A DNA stretch of 48,898 bases from an uncultured Bacteroidota bacterium (GCA_903911135.1 CAIWCG010000072.1:1-48898), one strand, 5' to 3'. Positions 1 through 48,898 are shown, counted from the first letter of the stretch. Numbers and translations: made by a program. The notes: generated from the sequence alone by a model not told the origin.

Positions 1-99
1 ATAGTAGCGGCAGCCCGCTGCTTTGTTTCGGAAGTGGGGATGCAGCGGCTACAGCGGATAGCGGGACTGGCCATGATACGAGAAGAAACCGTAGGCTCC
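1..99 (+). repeat. Dispersed conserved non-coding element (here called AGCGG element), copy 1, 3' part, cut by window start
   Basis: Collinear with 28211-28309 (88 of 99 identical by hand count; 1-26, 36-81 and 92-99 identical). The 30-nt core GGATGCAGCGGCTACAGCGGATAGCGGGAC recurs at 48869-48898 on the minus strand. No coding support. Confidence 0.8.
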
Positions 100-3499: not shown

Positions 3500-3709
3500 G
3501 GCCAAAATCAATTTGGATTTTGGCTAAATCAATTTTGATTCGTGTGAAAACCATTTTGATTTGAGTGAAATCAACTTTGATTTAGGCAAAATCAAAGTTG
3601 ATTTGTGTGAAAACCATTTTGATTTGGGCAAAATCAAAGTTGATTCGGGTGAAAGCGCAATTGATTTGAGTGAAAACCATTTTGATTTAGACAAAATCAA
3701 TTTTGATTT
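3500..3709. repeat. TR-1: tandem array, 10 units of 21 bp
   Basis: Units end in TTGATTT/C at 3520, 3541, 3562 ... 3709. Six units contain the 16-bp palindrome AAATCAA-NN-TTGATTT. Confidence 0.9.
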
Positions 3710-3899
3710 GAGCCATATTTAAGCATGATTAGGGGTTTACAAGTCTGCGATTCAGGTTTTACAAGGCTCAACTATACATTTCTTAGCTTATATCAGTATA
3801 ATAGCATCGCCATTAGCGTGCCATCATACTGATATGATAGGTATCCTTTTGATAGTCATTAAAAGTAAATTTGGCTTGATGGATATACGGTTTTGGCAT

Positions 3900-11379: not shown

Positions 11380-11556
11380 GACATGGATTATTCACAATTA
11401 GCCATGGCAGATTCACAGTCTGCCATGGCAGATTCACAGTTAGCCATGGCAGATTCACAGTTAGCCATGGTAGATTCACAGTCTGCCATGGTAGATTCAC
11501 AGTCTGCCATGGCAGATTCACAGTCTGCCATGGCAGATTCACGGTTAGCCATGGCT
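11380..11556. repeat. TR-3: tandem array, about 8.4 units of 21 bp (GCCATGGCAGATTCACAGTYW)
   Basis: Each unit carries the 8-bp palindrome GCCATGGC. Four of six frames are stop-free, which produces the overlapping ORFs 11331-11682. Confidence 0.95.
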
Positions 11557-11602
11557 AAAAAATGGGATTTCAACCAAAATTGCAAATGTTTGGACGAGAA
11601 AC

Positions 11603-11731
11603 CTGCCATCGGGCATAGCCCTGACATGCCCAAGGTTATCCTTTTGTGCGTTGGCATTTTTGGGGGGGTATGGAAAAGATAACTGATGGCTGGCAGGTAG
11701 CACCAAATAACGCGAGGTGTCTGTCGGCTTC
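11603..11731 (+). repeat. Possible diverged relative of the AGCGG element (copy 4?)
   Basis: Patchy collinear similarity to 28189-28309: TGCCATCG..GCATAGCCC, CTTT(T)GTG.CG...TTTGGGG, and CGAG-N9-GGCTTC against CGAG-N11-GGCTCC. The stem GTTATC(C)TTTT/AAAAGATAAC replaces CCGCTGC/GCAGCGG around the same G-rich loop. Confidence 0.35.
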
Positions 11732-11798
11732 AAAAAAGAATTATTGATTATCCATTTTTAATTGAGCGGAGTTGAGTTAGATGTATCCCATTTATTTA

Positions 11799-14076: not shown

Positions 14077-14198
14077 GCCCCCTACCCTATTCAACTCGAT
14101 TTCCTTACCTTCAATATTTAATAATATCAGTCCAAACATGTTTGGCAAATAGGTTAATTGCCAAAATAAACATCAAAACTCGTATTGACAACAAACAT

Positions 14199-14607
14199 AT
14201 TATTGGATGTGTTCAATACGACCATATTGGGTCAATACATATTAATGGATGTGTTCAATACGACCGTATTGGGTCTATCTATATTTATGAATCCAGTCAA
14301 TACGACCGTTTCCAGTCAATCACTAAGTAGTAATCCATTCAAAACGACCGTTTCCAGTCAATCACTAAGTAGTAATCCATTCAAAACGACCGTTTCAAGT
14401 CAATCAATAAGTAGTAATCCATTCAAAACGACCGTTTCCAGTCAATCATTAGGTAGTAATCCTTTCAATACGACCGTTTCCAGTCAATCACTAGGTAGCA
14501 ATCAATTCAAAACGTCCGTTTCCAGTCAATCACTAAGTAGTAATCCATTCAAAACGACCGATTCCAGTCAATCACTAGGTAGCAATCAATTCAAAACGTC
14601 CGTTTAT
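14199..14607. repeat. TR-4: tandem array, about 9.7 units of 42 bp
   Basis: Unit boundaries at 14199, 14241, 14283, 14325 ... 14577. Core AAACG-AC-CGTTT in each unit. The first 2-3 units are a diverged variant. Confidence 0.95.
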
Positions 14608-14627
14608 CCCAACTATTAGAATTTATG

Positions 14628-14650
14628 ATAATAGCTTCTTTTCAAGCCAT
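14628..14650 (+). repeat. 23-nt motif ATAATAGCTTCTTTTCAAGCCAT flanking TR-4 (identical copy at 45667-45689)
   Basis: Identical 23-mer in the same orientation downstream of TR-4 (20 bp away) and of TR-12 (69 bp away). Confidence 0.85.
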
Positions 14651-14693
14651 CATCATAAATTCATCAGGAAGAAAAGGAAACTCCTGATGATGG

Positions 14694-18922: not shown

Positions 18923-19284
18923 TGCGGCGCAAATTAAGTATTATTTAAGGTAATCGTTTTGTTTTTATCAATAAATTGTAAAAGATGATACAAGACCCAT
19001 TGCAAGCAGAATCATTAACAAATCTGATGCCCAAAATTCTTCCGATTCTTATCGATGAGATCCAGCAGATGGGCAATATGATGAAGCTTTTCAGCCATTA
19101 CCTGCAATTGATTTCATAAAAGATATGACTAAAAATCATGGTTTTATTAATTATCATCCTCAAGATGCAGCATACCGATAAAAAGTCATCGATGATAAAT
19201 GATTAGCAATCATAAATTATTGATGACCATATAATAACAGTATAACAGATGGCGGTGAATGGGTAAGACATGCAGCTCTTTCTG

Positions 19285-19830
19285 GAAAAGCGATTCCTTT
19301 TTCCGAAAAAGCGATTCCTTTTCTCTGTTTTGCGATTGCTTTTTCTAGATAAGCTGCAGGTAAAACGGTTTTAGCTGCACCTTTTCCAACAAAAGCGATT
19401 GCTTTTCTTGAATTTGCGATTGCTTTTTCTCCATAACCTGCACCTAAAATCGATTTACCTACATGAAATCGAAAAAAAGGAATCGCTTTTTCGGAAAAAG
19501 GAATCGCTTTTTGATAATAAGGTGTAAGCTATGCTTGAAAAGGTTCAGGTTTTAATTGAAATGATGTAGGTGATGAAGAATAAGATGCATCTTTTGTTAG
19601 AAAAGGTTAAGCTAATGATAAAAAAGGTGTAACATCTGGCATTTTAGGTTAAGCTTTTGGCTAAAGAGATGCAGGTGATGACGAATCTGATGCAGGTTTT
19701 GATTGAAAAGTTTAAGCTATTTATAAAAAAAGTGCACCTCCTGGCTTTTTAGCTTATGCTTTTGATAAAACAGATGCAGGTAACGACGAATCAGCTTCAG
19801 GTTTTGATTGAAAATCTTAATCATCATGCA
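19285..19830. repeat. TR-5: degenerate tandem array, 26 units of 21 bp with a 105-bp (5x21) higher-order repeat
   Basis: The register holds from 19285 to 19830 (units start GAAAAG/AAAAAG/TTTTAG/AATMWG). 19600-19704 against 19705-19809 is about 81 percent identical by hand count. No ORF of 60 aa or more in 18923-19956. Confidence 0.85.
19286..19511. repeat. Perfect 37-bp inverted repeat pair inside TR-5 (arms 19286-19322 and 19475-19511)
   Basis: AAAAGCGATTCCTTTTTCCGAAAAAGCGATTCCTTTT and its exact reverse complement, separated by 152 bp. Confidence 0.9.
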
Positions 19831-21791: not shown

Positions 21792-21955
21792 CAAACGTTA
21801 CCGTTTGAGTTCGAAACGTTACCGTTTGAGATCGAAACGTTACCGTTTGAGGTCGAAACGTTACCGTTTGAGGTTGAAACGTTACCGTTTGAGGTCGAAA
21901 CGTTACCGTTTGAGGTTGAAACGTTACCGTTTGAGGTCGCAACGGTGACGTTTGG
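21792..21955. repeat. TR-6: tandem array, about 7.8 units of 21 bp (GAAACGTTACCGTTTGAGGTY)
   Basis: Units at 21792, 21813 ... 21918. Core AAACG-TTAC-CGTTT inverted repeat in each. Confidence 0.95.
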
Positions 21956-21993
21956 CAAAAGCCTTAATTAACCCTTATTTCAAAGAATATTTC

Positions 21994-22044
21994 GTTCATC
22001 GTCGTGTGACTACGACCTTTTGGAAGTAGCAACACGACGATGAA
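21994..22044. other. Long hairpin (13-bp perfect stem)
   Basis: TTCATCGTCGTGT (21994-22006) pairs with ACACGACGATGAA (22032-22044). Inner CTAC/GTAG pairs. No T-run follows. Confidence 0.7.
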
Positions 22045-22064
22045 TAAACCAATTACGAATTAAA

Positions 22065-22110
22065 AATTAGAAATTAGGAATGCGCACATCGTAATTCCTA
22101 ATTCCTAATT
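22065..22110. other. Long AT-rich hairpin (16 of 17 bp) abutting the hisS promoter
   Basis: AATTAGAAATTAGGAAT (22065-22081) pairs with ATTCCTAATTCCTAATT (22094-22110). The 11-mer AATTCCTAATT also occurs at 48806-48816. Confidence 0.7.
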
Positions 22111-25345: not shown

Positions 25346-27262
25346 ATGAAGATTACTGGCGACAAAAATCCATCACTATCAGAAGTAAATGCTTCTGTGG
25401 ATATTAGTGCCAAGAAAGGAATCTGGAAAAAGATTTTGGCATTCATGGGGCCTGCATACCTGATAAGCGTAGGATATATGGATCCGGGCAATTGGGCAAC
25501 TGACATTGCTGGTGGAAGTGGATTTGGATATAAACTTATCTGGGTACTATTGATGAGCAACCTTATGGCCTTGCTGCTTCAAAGCATGAGTTCGCGATTA
25601 GGGCTGGTAACTGGACGCGATCTTGCACAAGCATCAAGAGAAACCTATTCCAAGACGGTCAACTTGTTTCTATATATATTAGCGGAGATAGCCATAGCTG
25701 CCTGTGATTTGGCTGAGGTGCTGGGAATGGCCATAGGTCTTAAGTTACTTTTTGGTTTACCCATGGTTTTTGGTGTATGCATTACCGTTTTGGATACCTT
25801 GCTCCTTTTGTTCCTAATCAATTACGGTATTCGAAAGCTGGAAGCATTCATCATTTCATTGATAGCCATGATTGGAATTTCATTTCTAATAGAGATGTTT
25901 TTTGCCAAGCCTGCATTTGGTGACATCATGCAAGGCTTTATACCCAGCCTTCCAGATAATCCCAATGGTTCAGGAAGCACTGCTTTGTATATTGCTATAG
26001 GAATTATTGGTGCTACAGTGATGCCTCACAATCTTTATCTTCATTCGTCATTGGTGCAAACGAGGAAATTTGCAAGGACTCATTTTGGCATCTCGAGAGC
26101 CATTAAGCTTAATATTCTTGATTCGGTGATTGCCTTGAATCTTGCTTTTCTTGTGAACTGTGCCATTTTGATACTTGCCGCTGCAACATTCTTCAAAAAT
26201 GGGATGTTCGAGGTGGCTGACATAAGTGATGCCCATAAATTCCTTGCTCCATTATTGGGAAATAGGCTTGCTCCTATATTATTTGCCATTGCATTGATAG
26301 TAGCTGGGCAAAGTTCTACGATTACGGGCACACTTGCTGGTCAGATTGTGATGGAAGGTTATCTAAACCTGCGCATTCAGCCATGGCTTAGAAGGATGAT
26401 TACCCGAATCATCGCCATCATTCCTGCCTTGATTACGATTCTTTTTATAGGCGAGCAGGCAATAGGCAGTTTATTGATATTAAGCCAAGTGGTGCTTAGT
26501 CTGCAGCTTGGTTTTGCCATTATTCCACTCATCCATTTCGTGAGCGACAAGGAACGAATGGGGAAATTCGTCATTCGGCTTCCGGTGAAGATACTCGCTT
26601 GGATATGCGCCATCATCATTGTGGGGCTTAACGCAAAGATGCTTATTGATCAGATTGGGGATTGGGTGGCAAATGCGGGCAATCATTCTTGGATATACTT
26701 TGTCACCATCATTCCTATTGCTTCGATGGCTGGGATGCTGCTGCTTTACATTACTTTTCGTCCTTTATTATTGAAAACAAAAACTTTTATGGCCAGCAAT
26801 ACTCCACATGGCATCATCCGCAAGTTGGAATTTCCTGAAAACAGTCCTTTCAACAGGATTGCGATAACGATTGATTTCTCTTATGCCGATTCGAAGACAA
26901 TAAGCGCTGCGACTAAACAAGGTGGAAAAGATGCCGAATACCTGCTGATTCATGTGGTGGAAACTGCCGGTGCCATCCTTATGGGTCAGGAAATCAATGA
27001 TTTGGAAACTTTGTCGGACAAGCAGCAACTGCAGTCTTATCTTTATGATTTGAAGCAAATGGGATATAAGGTGGACTATGCCCTAGGCTTTGGGAACCCG
27101 AAGAAGGCGATTCCCATCTTGGTGAATGATTATAACCCTGACATTTTGGTGATGGGTGCTCATGGACACAATCTTTTCAAGGATATCATCTTCGGAACGA
27201 CTGTGAATACGGTTCGGCATAGGGTGAAGATACCGGTGCTTATCATCAAGGACACCAAATAA
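25346..27262 (+). CDS. mntH: Nramp-family divalent metal:proton symporter fused to a C-terminal universal stress protein (UspA) domain
   Basis: Canonical motifs GYMDPGNWATD (TM1) and GATVMPHNLYLHS (TM6). The C-terminal 150 aa or so have USP features (IAITIDFS..., ILVMGAHGHN..FGTTVNTVRH). Confidence 0.85.
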   Translation: MKITGDKNPSLSEVNASVDISAKKGIWKKILAFMGPAYLISVGYMDPGNWATDIAGGSGFGYKLIWVLLMSNLMALLLQSMSSRLGLVTGRDLAQASRETYSKTVNLFLYILAEIAIAACDLAEVLGMAIGLKLLFGLPMVFGVCITVLDTLLLLFLINYGIRKLEAFIISLIAMIGISFLIEMFFAKPAFGDIMQGFIPSLPDNPNGSGSTALYIAIGIIGATVMPHNLYLHSSLVQTRKFARTHFGISRAIKLNILDSVIALNLAFLVNCAILILAAATFFKNGMFEVADISDAHKFLAPLLGNRLAPILFAIALIVAGQSSTITGTLAGQIVMEGYLNLRIQPWLRRMITRIIAIIPALITILFIGEQAIGSLLILSQVVLSLQLGFAIIPLIHFVSDKERMGKFVIRLPVKILAWICAIIIVGLNAKMLIDQIGDWVANAGNHSWIYFVTIIPIASMAGMLLLYITFRPLLLKTKTFMASNTPHGIIRKLEFPENSPFNRIAITIDFSYADSKTISAATKQGGKDAEYLLIHVVETAGAILMGQEINDLETLSDKQQLQSYLYDLKQMGYKVDYALGFGNPKKAIPILVNDYNPDILVMGAHGHNLFKDIIFGTTVNTVRHRVKIPVLIIKDTK

Positions 27263-27319
27263 GAATATTGCCAAAAAGTTAGGTTTCTGTCTTGGTGAGT
27301 TTGTAATTTATTGTTTTAG

Positions 27320-27550
27320 CTGTCGTCTGTCATAAGTTACCTGTCGTCTGTAATAAGTTGCCTGTTGTCTGTCAAAATTGTCTTGTCGTCTGTCATAAGT
27401 TACCTGTCGTCTGTAATAAGTTGCCTGTCGTTTGTCATAAATTGCCTGTTGTCTGTCATAAGTTGCTTGTTGTCTGTCATAAATTGCCTGTCGTCTGTAA
27501 TAAGTTACCTGTCGTTTGGCATAAGTTGCCTGTCGTTTGGCATAAGTTAC
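27320..27550. repeat. TR-7: tandem array, 11 units of 21 bp (CTGTCGTCTGTCATAAGTTRC)
   Basis: Unit starts at 27320, 27341 ... 27530. Internal direct half-repeat CTGTC-GT-CTGTC. Confidence 0.95.
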
Positions 27551-27672
27551 TTGGTGTCGGGGATTTAATGGTTGTGGATAGTTAAAAAATTAGAATAAAG
27601 TATAAAATGTTTAAAATTAGAGTTGGGAATAGATATTACCAATGTAAAAAGAGATGCTTTAGGTGGTTTTTG

Positions 27673-27903
27673 AGCTTATCTAATTGTTGTAATATGCTAT
27701 CTCGGGGTTGTAAAATGCTATCTCTTGGTCGTGAAATGCTATCTCGTGGTCATGAAATGCTACCTCGTGGTCGTAAAATGCTATCTCGGGATCGTAATAT
27801 GCTACCTCGTGGTCGTAAAATGCTACCTCGGGATCGTAATATGCTATCTCATGATCGTAAAATGCTATCTCGGGATCGTAAAATGCTACCTCGTTATCAT
27901 AAA
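27673..27903. repeat. TR-8: tandem array, 11 units of 21 bp (ATGCTAYCTCGKGRTCGTAAW)
   Basis: Unit starts at 27673, 27694 ... 27883. Sequence is unrelated to TR-7, which lies 120 bp upstream. Confidence 0.95.
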
Positions 27904-27950
27904 ATGAGAGTCATTTGAAAGATTTTAAGCTAAGAAGGGTGGAAAAGGGG

Positions 27951-28090
27951 AAATGTGGGTGGGTGTTTTGGGGTCTGGATTGCAAATCCAGACCAGCGGG
28001 AAAATGTGGATGGGTGTTTTGGGGTCTGGATTACAAATCCAGACCAGCAGATTGGGTGTTTTGGGGTCGGGATTGCAAATCCCAACCAGC
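27951..28090. repeat. TR-9: three copies of a 37-nt hairpin repeat (GGGTGTTTTGGGGTCTGGATTGCAAATCCAGACCAGC)
   Basis: Copies at 27961-27997, 28012-28048 and 28054-28090 (spacings 51 and 42 bp). 9-10 bp stem GGTCTGGAT/ATCCAGACC. Copy 3 has a paired T-A to G-C change. Confidence 0.9.
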
Positions 28091-28309
28091 GTGATAGTGA
28101 ACAACCTTACAGGACGGCGAGAAAAAAGCCGACCTGTCAGGATGTTCGCCGCAGCCAGGTATTGTATTGGAAGTTGTTTCGAGGCAACTTGCCATCGAAG
28201 CATAGCCCCGATAGTAGCGGCAGCCCGCTGCTTTGTGTCGGGTTTGGGGATGCAGCGGCTACAGCGGATAGCGGGACTGGCCATGATACGAGTGGAGGAT
28301 ATAGGCTCC
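28091..28309 (+). repeat. AGCGG element, copy 2 (only internal, probably full-length copy)
   Basis: 28211-28309 matches 1-99, and the core matches 48869-48898 (minus strand). Upstream part contains hairpins ACAGGACGGC/GCCGACCTGT (9/10 bp) and AAGTTG/CAACTT. CCGCTGC (28225-28231) can pair with GCAGCGG (28251-28257). Confidence 0.7.
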
Positions 28310-28534
28310 AAATTGGAATTCTTCATGCAAATCTTTTATCAATAATTGTTATGATTTTCATGGTAATTCATCGAGAAAAGTTCCAAGAGATTTGCGATAT
28401 TTGCGGCGTGAAAATCTATATCTCTATCCCAGAGGTTCGGGAATTCAACATGGAAACATTTTTTGTTGAGATAATTGATGGTCTGCTTGCCGATAGGCAG
28501 CCTATAGTTTTGAATAAAAGAACTTAAAAATACG

Positions 28535-30085
28535 ATGCGAAGAAAAATCAGATATTATCGATTGATATGGCTAAAGCATGATTTGCCGGCTGGATTATCC
28601 GTGTTCCTGGTGGCCTTGCCGCTTTGTTTGGGCATCGCCTTGGCATCGGGAGCACCGTTGTATGCGGGTCTTTTATCTGGAATCATCGGTGGAATATTGG
28701 TATCTATTTTGAGTGGTTCGCAGTTGGGAGTATCTGGTCCGGCAGCAGGTTTGACAACAGTAGTTGCCGCTTCGATCATCTCCTTGGGCGACTATAGAAT
28801 CTTCTTGTTGGCAGTGATGGTGGCAGGATTGTTTCAATTGGTTTTGGGTTTATTGAGACTTGGAGTGATAGCTTCTTACTTTCCCTCTTCGGTTATAAAG
28901 GGCATGTTGGCAGCCATCGGCATCATCCTGATATCGAAACAGATTCCACTGGCGATAGGCTATGACCAACCCGACTTTTGGACCAGCGGGTTTCCGAAAA
29001 TCTTCTCGGCAGAGAACATATTGGGCAACGTGGAAGCCTTCAACCACCACCTGACGAGAGGAGCCATCCTGACGACCGTGGTATCGTTGGGGGTATTGGG
29101 GATATTGCAGCAACCGTTTGCGAAGAAACTCAAAGTAATACCGGCACCATTGCTGGTAGTGGCCATTGGCATCATCACAAATATTCTATTTACCAATGCG
29201 GCATCGTTATTTTCATTGAAGCATACGCAATTGGTGAACATACCTTCCAACGTTTTCGAAAGTATTGCATTCCCTGATTTCTCTAAACTGTTCTCCACTG
29301 CTGAAATTTGGAAAGACGGGCTGATAATTGGTTTATTGGCCACTTTGGAAACCATGTTATGCGTGGAAGCTGTGGATAAATTGGATAAACGAAACAGAAT
29401 AACGCCAGTGAACAGGGAGTTGATAGCACAAGGGATAGGAAACATGACTTGTGGACTATTGGGAGCCATTCCAATAACGGCAGTGGTAGTAAGAGGAGCA
29501 GCCAATGTGGATGCAGACGGGAGAACCAAACTGTCGGCATTTACGCATGGCATATTCCTTTTATTGGCGGTATTGGCAGTTCCGTTTCTGCTGAACATGA
29601 TACCTTATGCATCGCTTGCAGCCATCCTCATCATCACGGGACTGAACCTTACCAAACCCAAATTATATTTGAACATGTGGAGCCTCGGATGGAAACAGTT
29701 CATCCCATTCATCATCACCATCGTAGTTATTCTTTCTACTGACTTATTGGTGGGGGTTTGCATAGGGCTGCTGATTTCGATTTATTTCATCATACAAAAC
29801 AACTTCAAAGCGGAATACAAGATATCGAAAACGATGATGCATGAGGTGGAGAATCATTTAATCAAATTAAACAGCAATGTCACCTTTCTGAATAAAGTCA
29901 AACTACGTAAGGCCTTGGACCAAATTCCAGAATACAGTGTTTTGACCATAGACGGAAGTGATAGTAACTTTGTAGATTATGATATTTTAGAGATTATCAG
30001 TGAATATAGCAACAAGGCACACGATAGACATATTGAACTGCACTTGAAAGGTATCGAAAAGGTAAACATCATAGCGGTTCATTAA
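28535..30085 (+). CDS. SulP-family anion transporter with C-terminal STAS domain
   Basis: 516 aa. N-terminal DLPAGLSVFLVALPLCLGIALASGAP signature, polytopic core and a soluble tail of about 100 aa. Confidence 0.9.
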   Translation: MRRKIRYYRLIWLKHDLPAGLSVFLVALPLCLGIALASGAPLYAGLLSGIIGGILVSILSGSQLGVSGPAAGLTTVVAASIISLGDYRIFLLAVMVAGLFQLVLGLLRLGVIASYFPSSVIKGMLAAIGIILISKQIPLAIGYDQPDFWTSGFPKIFSAENILGNVEAFNHHLTRGAILTTVVSLGVLGILQQPFAKKLKVIPAPLLVVAIGIITNILFTNAASLFSLKHTQLVNIPSNVFESIAFPDFSKLFSTAEIWKDGLIIGLLATLETMLCVEAVDKLDKRNRITPVNRELIAQGIGNMTCGLLGAIPITAVVVRGAANVDADGRTKLSAFTHGIFLLLAVLAVPFLLNMIPYASLAAILIITGLNLTKPKLYLNMWSLGWKQFIPFIITIVVILSTDLLVGVCIGLLISIYFIIQNNFKAEYKISKTMMHEVENHLIKLNSNVTFLNKVKLRKALDQIPEYSVLTIDGSDSNFVDYDILEIISEYSNKAHDRHIELHLKGIEKVNIIAVH

Positions 30086-33801: not shown

Positions 33802-33824
33802 GTTTGATAATCATCCAAAACCTT

Positions 33825-34010
33825 AAAAAGGTCACCATGATCATAGTTTGGTATTTTGTAGCTTAAAAAGGTCAATCCATGATCATAGTTTGGGATTTTG
33901 TAGCCTAAAAAGGTCATTCCATGATCATCGATTGGGATTATTCAGCCTAAAAAGGCCAATCCATGATCATCGATTGATAATTTCCTTAAAAAGGACAATT
34001 GCTTATAAGG
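33825..34010. repeat. TR-10: tandem array, about 4.5 units of about 42 bp (AAAAAGGTCAWTCCATGATCAT...)
   Basis: Unit starts at 33825, 33865, 33907, 33949 and 33988 (lengths 40, 42, 42, 39). Palindrome ATGATCAT in each unit. Confidence 0.85.
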
Positions 34011-40015: not shown

Positions 40016-40245
40016 CTGATGGATGAGAACGGGGTAAAAAGTAATGCCCGAATACCTCCTCAGGATGAGATCATACCAAAAAGTACTGCCTGTATTCTTC
40101 CGAAGGATGAGAGCATACCAAAAAGTGGGGCCTGTATTCTTCCGAAGGATGAGAGACCACCAAAAAGTACTTACAAGGGCTTTTCCAAGAAAAGAGGAAT
40201 CCCAAAAACTGGTACCCGAGACCTTGTGGGCTTTTGGAAAAAATG
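40016..40245. repeat. TR-11: tandem array, about 5.5 units of 42 bp (CCGAAGGATGAGAGCATACCAAAAAGT...)
   Basis: Unit starts at 40016, 40058, 40100, 40142, 40184 and 40226, decaying outward. Lies between the GerE-like gene and the 320-aa orphan. Confidence 0.85.
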
Positions 40246-45387: not shown

Positions 45388-45597
45388 AAAAAAGAAGTCT
45401 TGTTTGGAAAAAAAGAAGTCTTGACGGGCAAAAAAGAAGTCTTGACGGACAAAAAAGAAGTCTTGACGGGCAAAAAAGAAGTCTTGATGAGCAAAAAAGA
45501 AGTCTTGACGAGCAAAAAAGAAGTCTTGACGAGCAAAAAAGAAGTCTTGACGGACAAAAAAGAAGTCTTGACGGGCAAAAAAGAAATCCTTTCGGGG
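45388..45597. repeat. TR-12: tandem array, 10 units of 21 bp (AAAAAAGAAGTCTTGACGRRC)
   Basis: Unit starts at 45388, 45409 ... 45577. One A6 tract per unit. Four of six frames are stop-free (ORFs 45256-45708 plus, and three on minus). Confidence 0.95.
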
Positions 45598-45666
45598 CAT
45601 TATCAAGCATCATTATCAATAATCAATACCTATATATATGGTATCATCATCAAAAATTTCAATATC

Positions 45667-45689
45667 ATAATAGCTTCTTTTCAAGCCAT
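45667..45689 (+). repeat. 23-nt motif ATAATAGCTTCTTTTCAAGCCAT flanking TR-12 (identical to 14628-14650)
   Basis: Exact 23-mer match in the same orientation relative to the array. Confidence 0.85.
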
Positions 45690-45764
45690 GATGCTATTGA
45701 AAGAATAAGGAATCTGGTTATAATTATTTAACTTCGCCCTCAATTAAAAATAAATGCGCTTAGG

Positions 45765-46856: not shown

Positions 46857-47981
46857 ATGAAATTCATTGTATCCAGCGGGTCGTTATTGAAGAACCTGCA
46901 AAGCATAAGTGGGGTTTTGAATACCAATACGCCACTTCCCATCTTGGAAAACTTTCTTTTCGACATAACGGATGGTACCTTGACGATATCAGCCTCCGAT
47001 TTGGAAACCACCATGACCACCAAGATGAACATAGAGGCCAGAGAGAACGGAAAGATTGCCATTCCAGCAAGAATATTGCTCGATACATTGAAAACCTTCC
47101 CAGAGCAACCATTGACATTCACCTTCAAGGCAGAAGACTTTGCCATTGAGTTAAGCTCGGATTATGGTAAGTATAACCTGACTGGCCAAGACGGAGAAGA
47201 GTTCCCAAGAATCCCGATAATAGAGGACAGCAAGACGATAGAAATGCCTACCAAGGTATTGGCAGATGCCATCAGCAAAACGGTATTTGCCACCGGCAAC
47301 GATGAATTGCGCCCTGTGATGACAGGAGTGTTCTTTCAGTTAGGACTGGATAACATTACCTTCGTGGCAACCGATGCCCACAAGTTGGTACGTTATAGAA
47401 GGAACGACCTGAAGTCGGAAGTGGAGACCTCATTCATACTTCCAAAGAAACCATTGAACCTTTTGAAAAACACATTGCCTTTGGAAGACACCAAAGTGAA
47501 CATTGACTATAACAACTCCAATGCGTTCTTCTCTTTCAATAACATTTCCCTGATATGCAGGTTGATTGATGGAAGGTATCCTAACTATGAGGCGGTAATA
47601 CCCCAGGAAAACCCAAACAAGCTTACCGTCGACAGGATTTCATTCTTGAATTCCATAAGACGTGTAGCCATTTTCTCAAATAAATCCACCCACCAGGTAA
47701 GATTAAAGATTACTGGCAGCGAACTACAGGTATCTGCCGAAGACTTGGATTTTGCCAACGCAGCGGTAGAGCGAATGAGTTGCAGCTATGTCGGCGAAGA
47801 CATGGAAATAGGTTTCAATGCAAGATTTCTGTTGGATATGCTCAACAACTTAAGCACTGCCGAAGTGTTGATAGAGATGTCCACATCAAACAGAGCCGGT
47901 TTATTGCTCGAAGCACCCAATGAACGCAATAACGACGAGGATATCCTCATGTTGGTAATGCCTGTCATGCTGAACAGTTAA
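46857..47981 (+). CDS. dnaN: DNA polymerase III beta sliding clamp
   Basis: 374 aa. MKFIVSSGSLLKNLQSISGVL..PILENFLF, ATDAHKLV, LIDGRYPNY, MPVML. Confidence 0.95.
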   Translation: MKFIVSSGSLLKNLQSISGVLNTNTPLPILENFLFDITDGTLTISASDLETTMTTKMNIEARENGKIAIPARILLDTLKTFPEQPLTFTFKAEDFAIELSSDYGKYNLTGQDGEEFPRIPIIEDSKTIEMPTKVLADAISKTVFATGNDELRPVMTGVFFQLGLDNITFVATDAHKLVRYRRNDLKSEVETSFILPKKPLNLLKNTLPLEDTKVNIDYNNSNAFFSFNNISLICRLIDGRYPNYEAVIPQENPNKLTVDRISFLNSIRRVAIFSNKSTHQVRLKITGSELQVSAEDLDFANAAVERMSCSYVGEDMEIGFNARFLLDMLNNLSTAEVLIEMSTSNRAGLLLEAPNERNNDEDILMLVMPVMLNS

Positions 47982-48011
47982 TTCGCCGATCACAAACCGA
48001 ATAAAAATAAG

Positions 48012-48049
48012 AAAGCCCTCTGATAGTTTTATCAGAGGGCTTTCCTTTT
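48012..48049. terminator. Bidirectional terminator between dnaN and rpmA
   Basis: 14-bp perfect stem AAAGCCCTCTGATA / TATCAGAGGGCTTT with a 4-nt loop. T-rich on the plus side and A-rich upstream. Confidence 0.8.
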
Positions 48050-48063
48050 AATTAAAAGATAAA

Positions 48064-48336
48064 TTATGCCGTAGCAGTTTCTTCATGAGGTACCACAGAT
48101 ACCCAAGAACGATTGTCGGATTTCTTTTGATATTTCACCCTTCCATCTACCAATGCAAAAATGGTATGGTCTTTTCCCATGCCTACATTTACACCTGGAT
48201 GATGAACGGTTCCACGTTGACGGACGATGATGTTACCGGCTCTCACAATGTGATTGCCATAAATCTTGATGCCTAAACGTTTACTATGCGATTCTCTACC
48301 GTTTGACGAGCTACCCGCTCCTTTTTTATGTGCCAT
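48064..48336 (-). CDS. rpmA: 50S ribosomal protein L27
   Basis: 90 aa. [24 protein letters not shown]... Confidence 0.95.
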
Positions 48337-48798: not shown

Positions 48799-48840
48799 CA
48801 TTTATAATTCCTAATTCATCATTTATAATTTCAATAAGGA
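48799..48840. repeat. Two 21-bp units (CATTTATAATT...) next to AGCGG element copy 3
   Basis: CATTTATAATT occurs at 48799 and 48820, exactly 21 bp apart. The remainder of the units has diverged. Confidence 0.4.
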
Positions 48841-48898
48841 GCCTATGCCCTCTTCTCGTCCCATCTACGTCCCGCTATCCGCTGTAGCCGCTGCATCC
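48838..48898 (-). repeat. AGCGG element, copy 3, 3' part, inverted orientation, cut by window end
   Basis: Minus strand reads GGATGCAGCGGCTACAGCGGATAGCGGGAC-GTAGATGG-GACGAG-AAGAGGGCA-TAGGCTCC. This is the same block order as copies 1 and 2, with the variable blocks differing. Confidence 0.8.

Follow-up and report, generated by a model that had tools for sequence, protein, structure and literature searches.

The DNA analysed here is a stretch of 48,898 nt from an uncultured Bacteroidota bacterium (CAIWCG010000072.1 of assembly GCA_903911135.1; in the following, the window), in which a 1272-bp spacer separates an Nramp-USP gene from sulP. The spacer contains, in this order, two tandem arrays (TR-7 and TR-8), a triplet of hairpins and a conserved element, which belongs to the Rfam family Flavo-1 (Table 1). 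As described below, the element is a known motif, which is seen here in a new, lineage-specific context, namely a polar coupling to 21-bp arrays for which our literature searches gave no previous account. An earlier note on this DNA had reported two unrelated 21-bp arrays of 11 copies each. Both were recovered with Tandem Repeats Finder (TRF) at slightly lower copy numbers, and their units are indeed unrelated, with a best circular match of 9/21, which is under the shuffled mean of 9.9. The end of TR-8 lies 270 nt from the 5' end of the element. The whole locus is identical in a second assembly from a different sample (L001; L-numbers denote recovered contigs or loci).

The spacer was said to lack a credible coding sequence, and this holds. 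A Pfam search of its open reading frames (ORFs) gave no match, and the 133-aa minus-strand ORF annotated there by a gene caller has only nine database relatives, each of them a short ORF without annotation that overlies a further copy of the element. With no Pfam match and homologues that are only spurious element ORFs, a coding reading of the spacer ORFs is rejected. Repeats of this kind break assemblies and yield spurious ORF calls, including three 'genes' within this spacer. Directly 5' of sulP there is a putative 58-aa ORF (28351-28527, plus strand), which is a gene call in two other assemblies and has no Pfam match.

The conserved AGCGG element at this locus is real, and its identity, which the earlier note had not recognised, is Flavo-1 (RF01705), since the whole Rfam model is matched above its gathering score. 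Flavo-1 is a bioinformatically defined motif of Bacteroidetes, the function of which is not known; it was rated a probable RNA by Weinberg et al. 2010 (PMC2864571) and is listed in a review among the most abundant small-RNA families (PMC9029176). In the transcriptome of Flavobacterium psychrophilum, Flavo-1 hits were sense or antisense to transcripts, and many were untranscribed (PMC9723704).

Further copies of the element were recovered by two routes. Spurious homologues of the ORF that overlies the element pointed to three contigs of the metagenome-assembled genome (MAG) GCA_037134775.1 (Bacteroidota bacterium), and a scan of Joint Genome Institute (JGI) metagenome contigs with a 23-mer of the 3' arm of the element led to 39 contigs. 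Including the window, this resulted in 54 copies with the exact core, 45 of them unique. A model named R1, which was built on an alignment of the extended element (39 copies), added six divergent copies; a scan of genome contigs with the lineage-specific 23-mer gave no match. Neighbouring proteins and related contigs are labelled as Bacteroidota or Bacteroidia MAGs, and the genes next to the copies are diverse housekeeping genes. As expected for repeats that break assemblies, copies are found at contig ends in the MAG, and the window itself begins and ends inside copies.

The extended element has a length of 146 nt. It comprises an invariant closing helix (TTCG/CGAG), a small 5' hairpin, the Flavo-1 hairpin, a variable insert of about 30 nt and a tail, which ends in TAGGCTCC or TAGGCTTC (GGCTCC at the end of the spacer copy). 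The Flavo-1 stems are identical in 39/39 copies, and variation is found in the apical loop and in the flanks. Runs of AT-rich heptamers (AATTATR or GAGTTAT) are usually present 3' of the tail.

The main result of our analysis is the position of the arrays relative to this element. TRF was run for each copy, oriented on the element strand, and an array was counted if its period was 21 or a multiple thereof and if it lay within 600 nt. On the 5' side an array was found in 28 of the 37 assessable canonical copies, with a median gap of about 115 nt, and on the 3' side in none of 34 (side bias, binomial p=7e-9). The same polarity emerges when the arrays are taken as the starting point: an element is present within 260 nt in 23 of 102 flanks read outward from the arrays, and all 23 point outward and none inward. 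The suggestion that array and element form a modular unit is thus borne out by both counts and by the recurring order of the hairpins described below. The expectation that other element copies have a 21-bp array on the same side holds for the 28 copies mentioned above and fails for the remaining 9/37 (about a quarter), which are without an array, so that the unit is not obligate. Among the six divergent copies, the array is 5' in three, 3' in one, and not found nearby in two. The co-occurrence of the arrays, the hairpin triplet and the element, together with the second locus described next, is well beyond chance expectation.

The second locus is the one at 11380-11731, where an array followed by an element-like sequence had been noted. 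Here the extended model finds a significant divergent element shortly after the array (Table 1), the outer Flavo-1 stem of which shows compensation at two pairs. The same subfamily also flanks an array in L018, and members of the divergent subfamily are also found on the far side of some arrays.

Taken over all copies, the recurring order is array, hairpin A (one to five times), hairpin B, hairpin C, Flavo-1 element, heptamer tail and gene boundary. The tail of the element is always at most about 225 nt away from a long ORF, which is co-oriented in about half of the cases and convergent in about the other half. In at least six loci (L023, L045, L046/L033, L042, L029 and L018) an outward-facing inverted pair of elements flanks one array; in L010 such a pair is present without an array between its members. 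Elements truncated at the 5' end abut the arrays directly in L013, L017 and L022, and array-free copies start directly behind the upstream gene's terminator hairpin in L015, L020, L022 and L037. A further module of about 110 nt, named H, is a GC-rich Flavo-like hairpin with the same apical-loop motif (TTTRTNTCGG...TGGGGAT). It was seen on the far side of arrays which have Flavo-1 on the near side, in L011 (right of 398-591), L048 (left of 744-895) and L014 (right of 903-1182).

The three hairpin repeats of the spacer, which were previously assigned a unit of 37 nt, are present, but the measured unit is 42-51 nt. The module, hairpin A, has the form GGTCTGGATT GCA AATCCAGACC, followed by AGCGG. 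Since one to five copies of it are located 5' of other element copies (L010, L026, L043, L040 and L021), the triplet in the window is a reiterated standard module of the mosaic. Hairpin B occupies the same position in L010 and L014, and L008 has it in the orientation opposite to that of the window. The full form of hairpin C, GGCTGCGGCGAAAAGGCnnnGCCTTTTCGCCGCAGCC, is a palindrome that is perfect and rich in GC, and most other copies contain it; elsewhere hairpin C is halved or absent, and in the window its 5' half is deleted. The order A, then B, then C upstream of the element is fixed across the copies, and the modules are optional.

The claim that the hairpin is under selection is supported at the level of the family. 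In an alignment of 17 copies of hairpin A, 95.9% of the cells are paired, and changes on both sides occur in 4/10 pairs. One pair is UA in eight copies, GC in five, AU in three and CG in one, with zero mismatches. The observed covariation was reached by 0/500 shuffles. The case originally put forward was hairpin copy 3, in which T to G at 28069 was thought to be compensated by A to C on the opposite arm. These base changes are present (A to C at 28083, with G to A at 28084), but they are better read as a pre-existing G-C variant of the family, GGTCGGG...CCCGACC, which is also seen in L021 and L026, with a later G to A mismatch, than as a fresh compensation of copy 1. Judged by comparative evidence, the stems show that the hairpins matter; the acting form may be RNA, single-stranded DNA or a cruciform. 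The core of hairpin A, CTGGATTGCAAATCCAG (27976-27992 and the other cores), resembles the anticodon arm of tRNA-Cys (GCA). ARAGORN predicts no tRNA there, which speaks against a tRNA fragment, and the likeness may be fortuitous.

Table 1. Coordinates of the spacer, its modules and related features in the window
Feature	Position	Strand	Description	Basis
Nramp-USP gene	25346-27262			
Spacer	27263-28534		1272 bp	
TR-7	27320-27548		21-bp minisatellite, 10.9 copies, 84% matches, unit CTGTCGTCTGTCATAAGTTGC	TRF and repeat finder; identical in L001
TR-8	27689-27906		21-bp minisatellite, 10.4 copies, 42-bp higher-order pattern, unit GTAAAATGCTATCTCGTGGTC	TRF and repeat finder
Hairpin A, three tandem copies	27947-28090	+	10-bp stem, GCA loop, 3' AGCGG flank	
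Hairpin A cores	27972-27994, 28023-28045, 28065-28087		copy spacings 51 and 42 nt	
Hairpin B	28105-28141	+	CCTTACAGGACGGC GAGAAAAAA GCCGACCTGTCAGG	
Hairpin C, 3' half only	28145-28156	+	TTCGCCGCAGCC	
Extended Flavo-1-type element	28167-28312	+	146 nt	model R1, 168 bits; alignment of 39 copies
Flavo-1 match ('AGCGG element')	28200-28282		model positions 1-76 (whole model)	Rfam RF01705, 52.6 bits vs gathering score 42
sulP	28535-30085			
Second locus, array before element	11390-11555		21 bp x 7.9, unit ATTCACAGTTAGCCATGGCAG	TRF
Divergent subfamily element	11582-11734	+	27 nt after array 11390-11555	R1, 29.5 bits, E=5e-5
Element copy 1, cut by window start	1-99	+	followed by (GAGTTAT)x4.4 at 106-136	Rfam, 34.3 bits
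Element copy cut by window end	48835-48898	-	tail and 3' arm only	exact 23-mer match, partial R1
Heptamer run	48800-48831		on tail side of copy 48835-48898	TRF
Further arrays	3503-3710, 11390-11555, 14195-14605, 19279-19814		periods 21, 42, 63, 84 or 105, all units different	
Further arrays, continued	21793-21944, 33824-33970, 40036-40169, 45388-45585		periods 21, 42, 63, 84 or 105	

The association between arrays and elements is specific to this lineage. For comparison we used 109 copies of Flavo-1 in 106 loci of other Bacteroidota (L050-L155, from named genomes), including Flavobacterium, Chryseobacterium, Kaistella, Epilithonimonas, Pedobacter and Chitinophagales MAGs. Around these copies there are almost no tandem arrays and no multi-copy 21-bp array. 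In 233 kb of DNA of the lineage, 50 distinct arrays were found, 37 with period 21, eight with period 42 and five with other periods, whereas 800 kb of the loci from other Bacteroidota contain 22 arrays of period >=8, two of them with period 21. The density of arrays with period 21 or 42 is therefore about 190 per Mb in the lineage versus 2.5 per Mb in the other Bacteroidota sampled. As a general reference, only 18 of the 119 bacterial species of a published survey exceed 4 satellites per Mb (PMC6749651).

The element itself agrees with Flavo-1 elsewhere in the full-model match, the bulged hairpin with AGCGG boxes, the covarying pair, the multi-copy nature and the occurrence in Bacteroidota. 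The pair in question (GATNG/GGANAG) is AT in 49, TA in 45, GC in 11 and CG in one of the 109 copies, with three mismatches. What differs here is that the motif is part of a 146-nt element that also has a closing helix, heptamer runs and, preceding the TAGGCTCC tail, an insert of roughly 30 nt, and that it is coupled with fixed polarity to 21-bp minisatellites and to hairpins A, B and C; the 109 copies from other Bacteroidota show none of these features. In the named genomes the Flavo-1 hairpin is bracketed by a direct repeat, TAGCCCC...TAGCTCC. There, flanking genes opposite to the Rfam orientation are three times commoner than genes on the same strand; both flanking genes are opposite in 33 copies and both are on the same strand in 10.

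The arrays share their period and not their sequence. The period is 21 or 42 in 45/50 distinct arrays, and the units are unrelated between loci, without a common motif or a strong composition bias (about 45% G+C). A construction from heptamers or a phasing at 10.5 bp was rejected, as no lag-7 or lag-10/11 signal was detected in 37 units. Variable positions within the units cluster weakly (Fisher p=0.006), and only a few arrays account for this (median p=0.38); with clustering so weak and patchy, a conserved binding core was also rejected. An origin from a hairpin arm, for which arrays should generally end in an inverted copy of their unit, was rejected as well: such an end was seen in only about three arrays, and the mean was 5.5 nt versus 5.0 nt in controls.

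A hint at how the arrays arise comes from the unit AAACGTTACCGTTTGAGGTCG, which is present in 7.2 copies in the window array 21793-21944 (region 21793-21975) and in a single copy at a non-syntenic locus of the MAG (L010, 6686-6904). At the latter, the single unit corresponds to one arm and the loop of a small hairpin between two inverted elements, and at 21793 seven tandem copies of the unit precede the other hairpin arm. The single unit at one locus and the tandem units at the other are therefore direct evidence of in-place amplification with a 21-nt step, and at the level of sequence this one clear case points to such an amplification in the 21793 array. Copy numbers also differ between related loci: the 42-bp array at 33824-33970 comprises 3.5 units in the window against 4.6 in L001 (15288-15478), and another array has 9.8 copies in L016 and 8.5 in L049; either real polymorphism or an artefact of short-read assembly could account for these differences. 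At the apparently orthologous loci L016 and L049 the array has kept the same unit, with flanks that are only 84% identical.

The closest described system is the BrickBuilt element of Porphyromonas gingivalis, a MITE (miniature inverted-repeat transposable element) described by Klein et al. 2015 (PMC4596501). It is likewise non-coding, intergenic and multi-copy in a member of the Bacteroidota, it carries a spacer-less 23-nt minisatellite between a 'leader' and a 'tail', many of its copies have one flank or neither, and the copy number varies; it differs in having one repeat unit shared by all copies and IS5-type terminal inverted repeats of 12 nt (PMC4596501). In the present lineage each array has its own unit with a period of 21, the flanks are hairpins of the Flavo-1 type, and there are no short terminal inverted repeats. 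Like a MITE, the element is non-autonomous, multi-copy and intergenic, with 45 unique copies, no coding capacity and housekeeping genes as neighbours. However, its ends, ..TTTCGA.. on one side and ..TAGGCTCC on the other, do not form an inverted repeat, and only whole elements form inverted pairs; nor is there a common internal minisatellite unit, as the 50 distinct arrays have unrelated units.

The mosaic is also similar in plan to the bacterial interspersed mosaic elements (BIMEs) formed by repetitive extragenic palindromes (REPs). In Enterobacteria REP/BIME, and in Streptococcus pneumoniae the BOX elements with the structure boxA-boxB(n)-boxC, are intergenic clusters of modular palindromes in variable number and orientation, with one module reiterated. 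A palindrome mosaic of this type is found here as well, with the reiteration of hairpin A, the inversion of B and the complete, halved or missing C. Unlike the arrays described here, the reiterated modules of REP/BIME and BOX have a sequence that is common across loci, and we know of no exact, sequence-independent period in them. REPs are tied to REP-associated tyrosine transposases (RAYTs) of the Y1 HUH type.

Arrays built of direct repeats, roughly 20-40 bp long and flanked in a polar manner by a 'leader', are further known from clustered regularly interspaced short palindromic repeats (CRISPR) and from iterons or partition centromeres, and iterons are spaced by about two helical turns. An identity with CRISPR arrays can be discarded, since the units are arranged head-to-tail without spacers and no cas domains were found among the called genes. 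The same is true for iterons and partition centromeres: no rep or par genes are adjacent, the arrays number in the tens per 100 kb and all differ in their unit, and in the 49 kb of the window ten arrays have ten different units.

The copies have in common a defined architecture and polarity, a high copy number, constrained hairpins, no coding capacity and no adjacent mobility genes. We favour the explanation, to which we assign about an even chance of being right, that they belong to a dispersed, non-coding, non-autonomous mosaic repeat acting at the DNA level, the hairpins of which are recognised by a protein encoded elsewhere. Such a repeat would comprise, in a fixed polar order, one or more locus-specific 21-bp minisatellites, the optional hairpins A, B and C, the 146-nt element and the heptamer tail, followed by the gene boundary. 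Its elements would end at the gene-proximal edges of the spacers and point outward. Recognition of structure is proposed since the stems do not vary inside the lineage and show covariation from one lineage to another; the hairpins would be kept because the protein recognises folded strands, and it could be a structure-specific transposase or recombinase, as for repeats of the REP/BIME or MITE type. The minisatellites would form in situ on the inner (5') side, as local segments of 21 bp, arbitrary in sequence, are duplicated in tandem, and their copy number would then drift. The element might cause the arrays, or it might target them. How the repeat spreads can be inferred only, because no transposase, reverse transcriptase or integrase is adjacent, no target-site duplications were found at the outer ends of inverted pairs, and the element and hairpin A were absent from the viral contigs searched.

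Several observations weigh against a mobile mosaic repeat of this kind. Among 55 ORFs neighbouring the copies there is no transposase, reverse transcriptase, integrase or RAYT that could serve as the mobilising enzyme. The elements have no terminal inverted repeat, and outside the tails of five inverted pairs no direct repeat was found, the true termini being uncertain. Arrays do not need the element, because 8/10 arrays of the window are without an element detectable by R1, which finds one beside 2/10. No gradient in unit divergence relative to the element was seen along the arrays (p=0.22), so that a growth starting from the element in a polar manner is not demonstrated. With slippage alone, an exact 21-bp period with arbitrary sequence is left unaccounted for. 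The only exception to the polarity that we found, the divergent copy in L021 (3357-3503, minus strand; region L021 2921-3600), carries two copies of hairpin A on the head side, and its 42-bp array follows the tail at a distance of 211 nt. Finally, the data are all short-read metagenome assemblies, in which the lengths of arrays are possibly in error, and orthologues of related strains may be among the copies counted as 'unique'. No orthologous regions besides the repeats link the window to related contigs, which makes an empty-site comparison impossible. In a synteny comparison, the closest homologues of the Nramp-USP gene (76-80% and 69% identity) lie next to other genes, with short spacers that are free of arrays, so that there is no homologous spacer for comparative folding.

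A more speculative reading is a dedicated molecular ruler, namely an enzyme that would recognise Flavo-1-type hairpins and their relatives and add exact 21-bp duplications of whatever sequence is on the inner side. We consider this improbable. Candidates would be an integrase cutting with a 21-bp stagger and a template-jumping reverse transcriptase or polymerase. A retroelement-like ruler could fit the intact 3' ends, the 5'-truncated copies and the tandem heptamers at the 3' terminus, and if true, such a system would build locus-specific minisatellites chromosome-wide, irrespective of sequence.

The strong covariation of the stems fits a role in RNA equally well. The hairpin modules and Flavo-1 could be transcribed and function as structured non-coding RNA, or else as a terminator or insulator of polar action; the insulator would keep transcription begun in the arrays, or passing through them, out of the neighbouring gene. 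In line with this, the region 27940-28320 folds as RNA far better than shuffled sequence (z=-4.45), Flavo-1 was rated a probable RNA in the study cited above, the tail always faces the nearest gene whatever its orientation, and the inverted pairs guard both sides of an array, the last two being as expected of an outward-facing insulator. Still, we regard a function in RNA as unlikely, since no U-tract terminator follows the hairpin, a scan of the spacer for sigma-70 promoters and intrinsic terminators gave nothing above shuffled sequence, and in F. psychrophilum the hits of Flavo-1 lie on either strand relative to transcripts and are often untranscribed. Tens of copies in the lineage, some of them truncated at the 5' end, are also at odds with such a role, and the invariance of the stem sequence within the lineage suggests recognition by a sequence-specific protein and not of the fold alone.

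Alternatively, the arrays themselves could be functional, as platforms for protein binding or DNA shape, with the Flavo-1-type elements as boundary modules. As 21 bp correspond to two helical turns, every unit would lie on the same face of the helix. The prevalence of periods 21 and 42 regardless of sequence would be explained in this way, and the occurrence of arrays in all long spacers of the window, the retention of one unit at L016/L049 between diverged flanks and the weak clustering of variable positions are consistent with it. We nevertheless give it little credence: the units have no common motif and no sub-periodicity of 10.5 or 7 nt, the clustering comes from a few arrays, helical phasing would also permit periods of 10-11 or 31-32 bp, of which none were seen, and the arrays are found in convergent, divergent and tandem spacers alike. 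Even more doubtful is a mere coincidence, in which arrays fill long spacers, the element also lodges in spacers, and the two are neighbours by chance. Indeed, with an array in nine of nine long spacers of the window (the tRNA spacer excepted), any element there must lie near one, and most arrays are without an element. But chance predicts equal sides and orientations, while the counts are 28 versus 0 and 23 versus 0, and the order of A, B and C is fixed. Because of this polarity, we consider coincidence highly improbable.

Should the mosaic repeat acting on DNA prove correct or not, Flavo-1, which has been without function or context since 2010, gains a defined genomic behaviour in one lineage, where it is the outward-facing terminal module of a mosaic repeat coupled to minisatellites. 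Two questions thereby become testable, namely what sets a repeat length that is independent of sequence, and whether Flavo-1 acts at the level of DNA or of RNA.

Regarding the other features of the window, every spacer of at least 320 bp (nine of nine) has an array, with the exception of the tRNA-Met spacer, and shorter spacers have none. The genes flanking the arrays include Nramp, SulP, HisRS, nos and ccm. The Flavo-1 match of element copy 1 is below the threshold because the copy is cut by the window start; L003 extends it by 72 nt upstream, into hairpin C. A heptamer run at 22058-22110, to the right of the 21793 array and just 5' of the HisRS gene, follows a long hairpin (21994-22043) that is unrelated to the element. 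At 47927-48133, in the surroundings of a terminator-like hairpin, weak matches to the His_leader family on both strands stayed below the threshold (32 and 30.7 bits versus a gathering score of 49); they are probably due to chance. A motif of 27 nt (ATAATAGCTTCTTTTCAAGCCAT.ATG, 96% identical) is present at 14625-14651 and 45664-45690, to the right of two different arrays, and may be another flank module.

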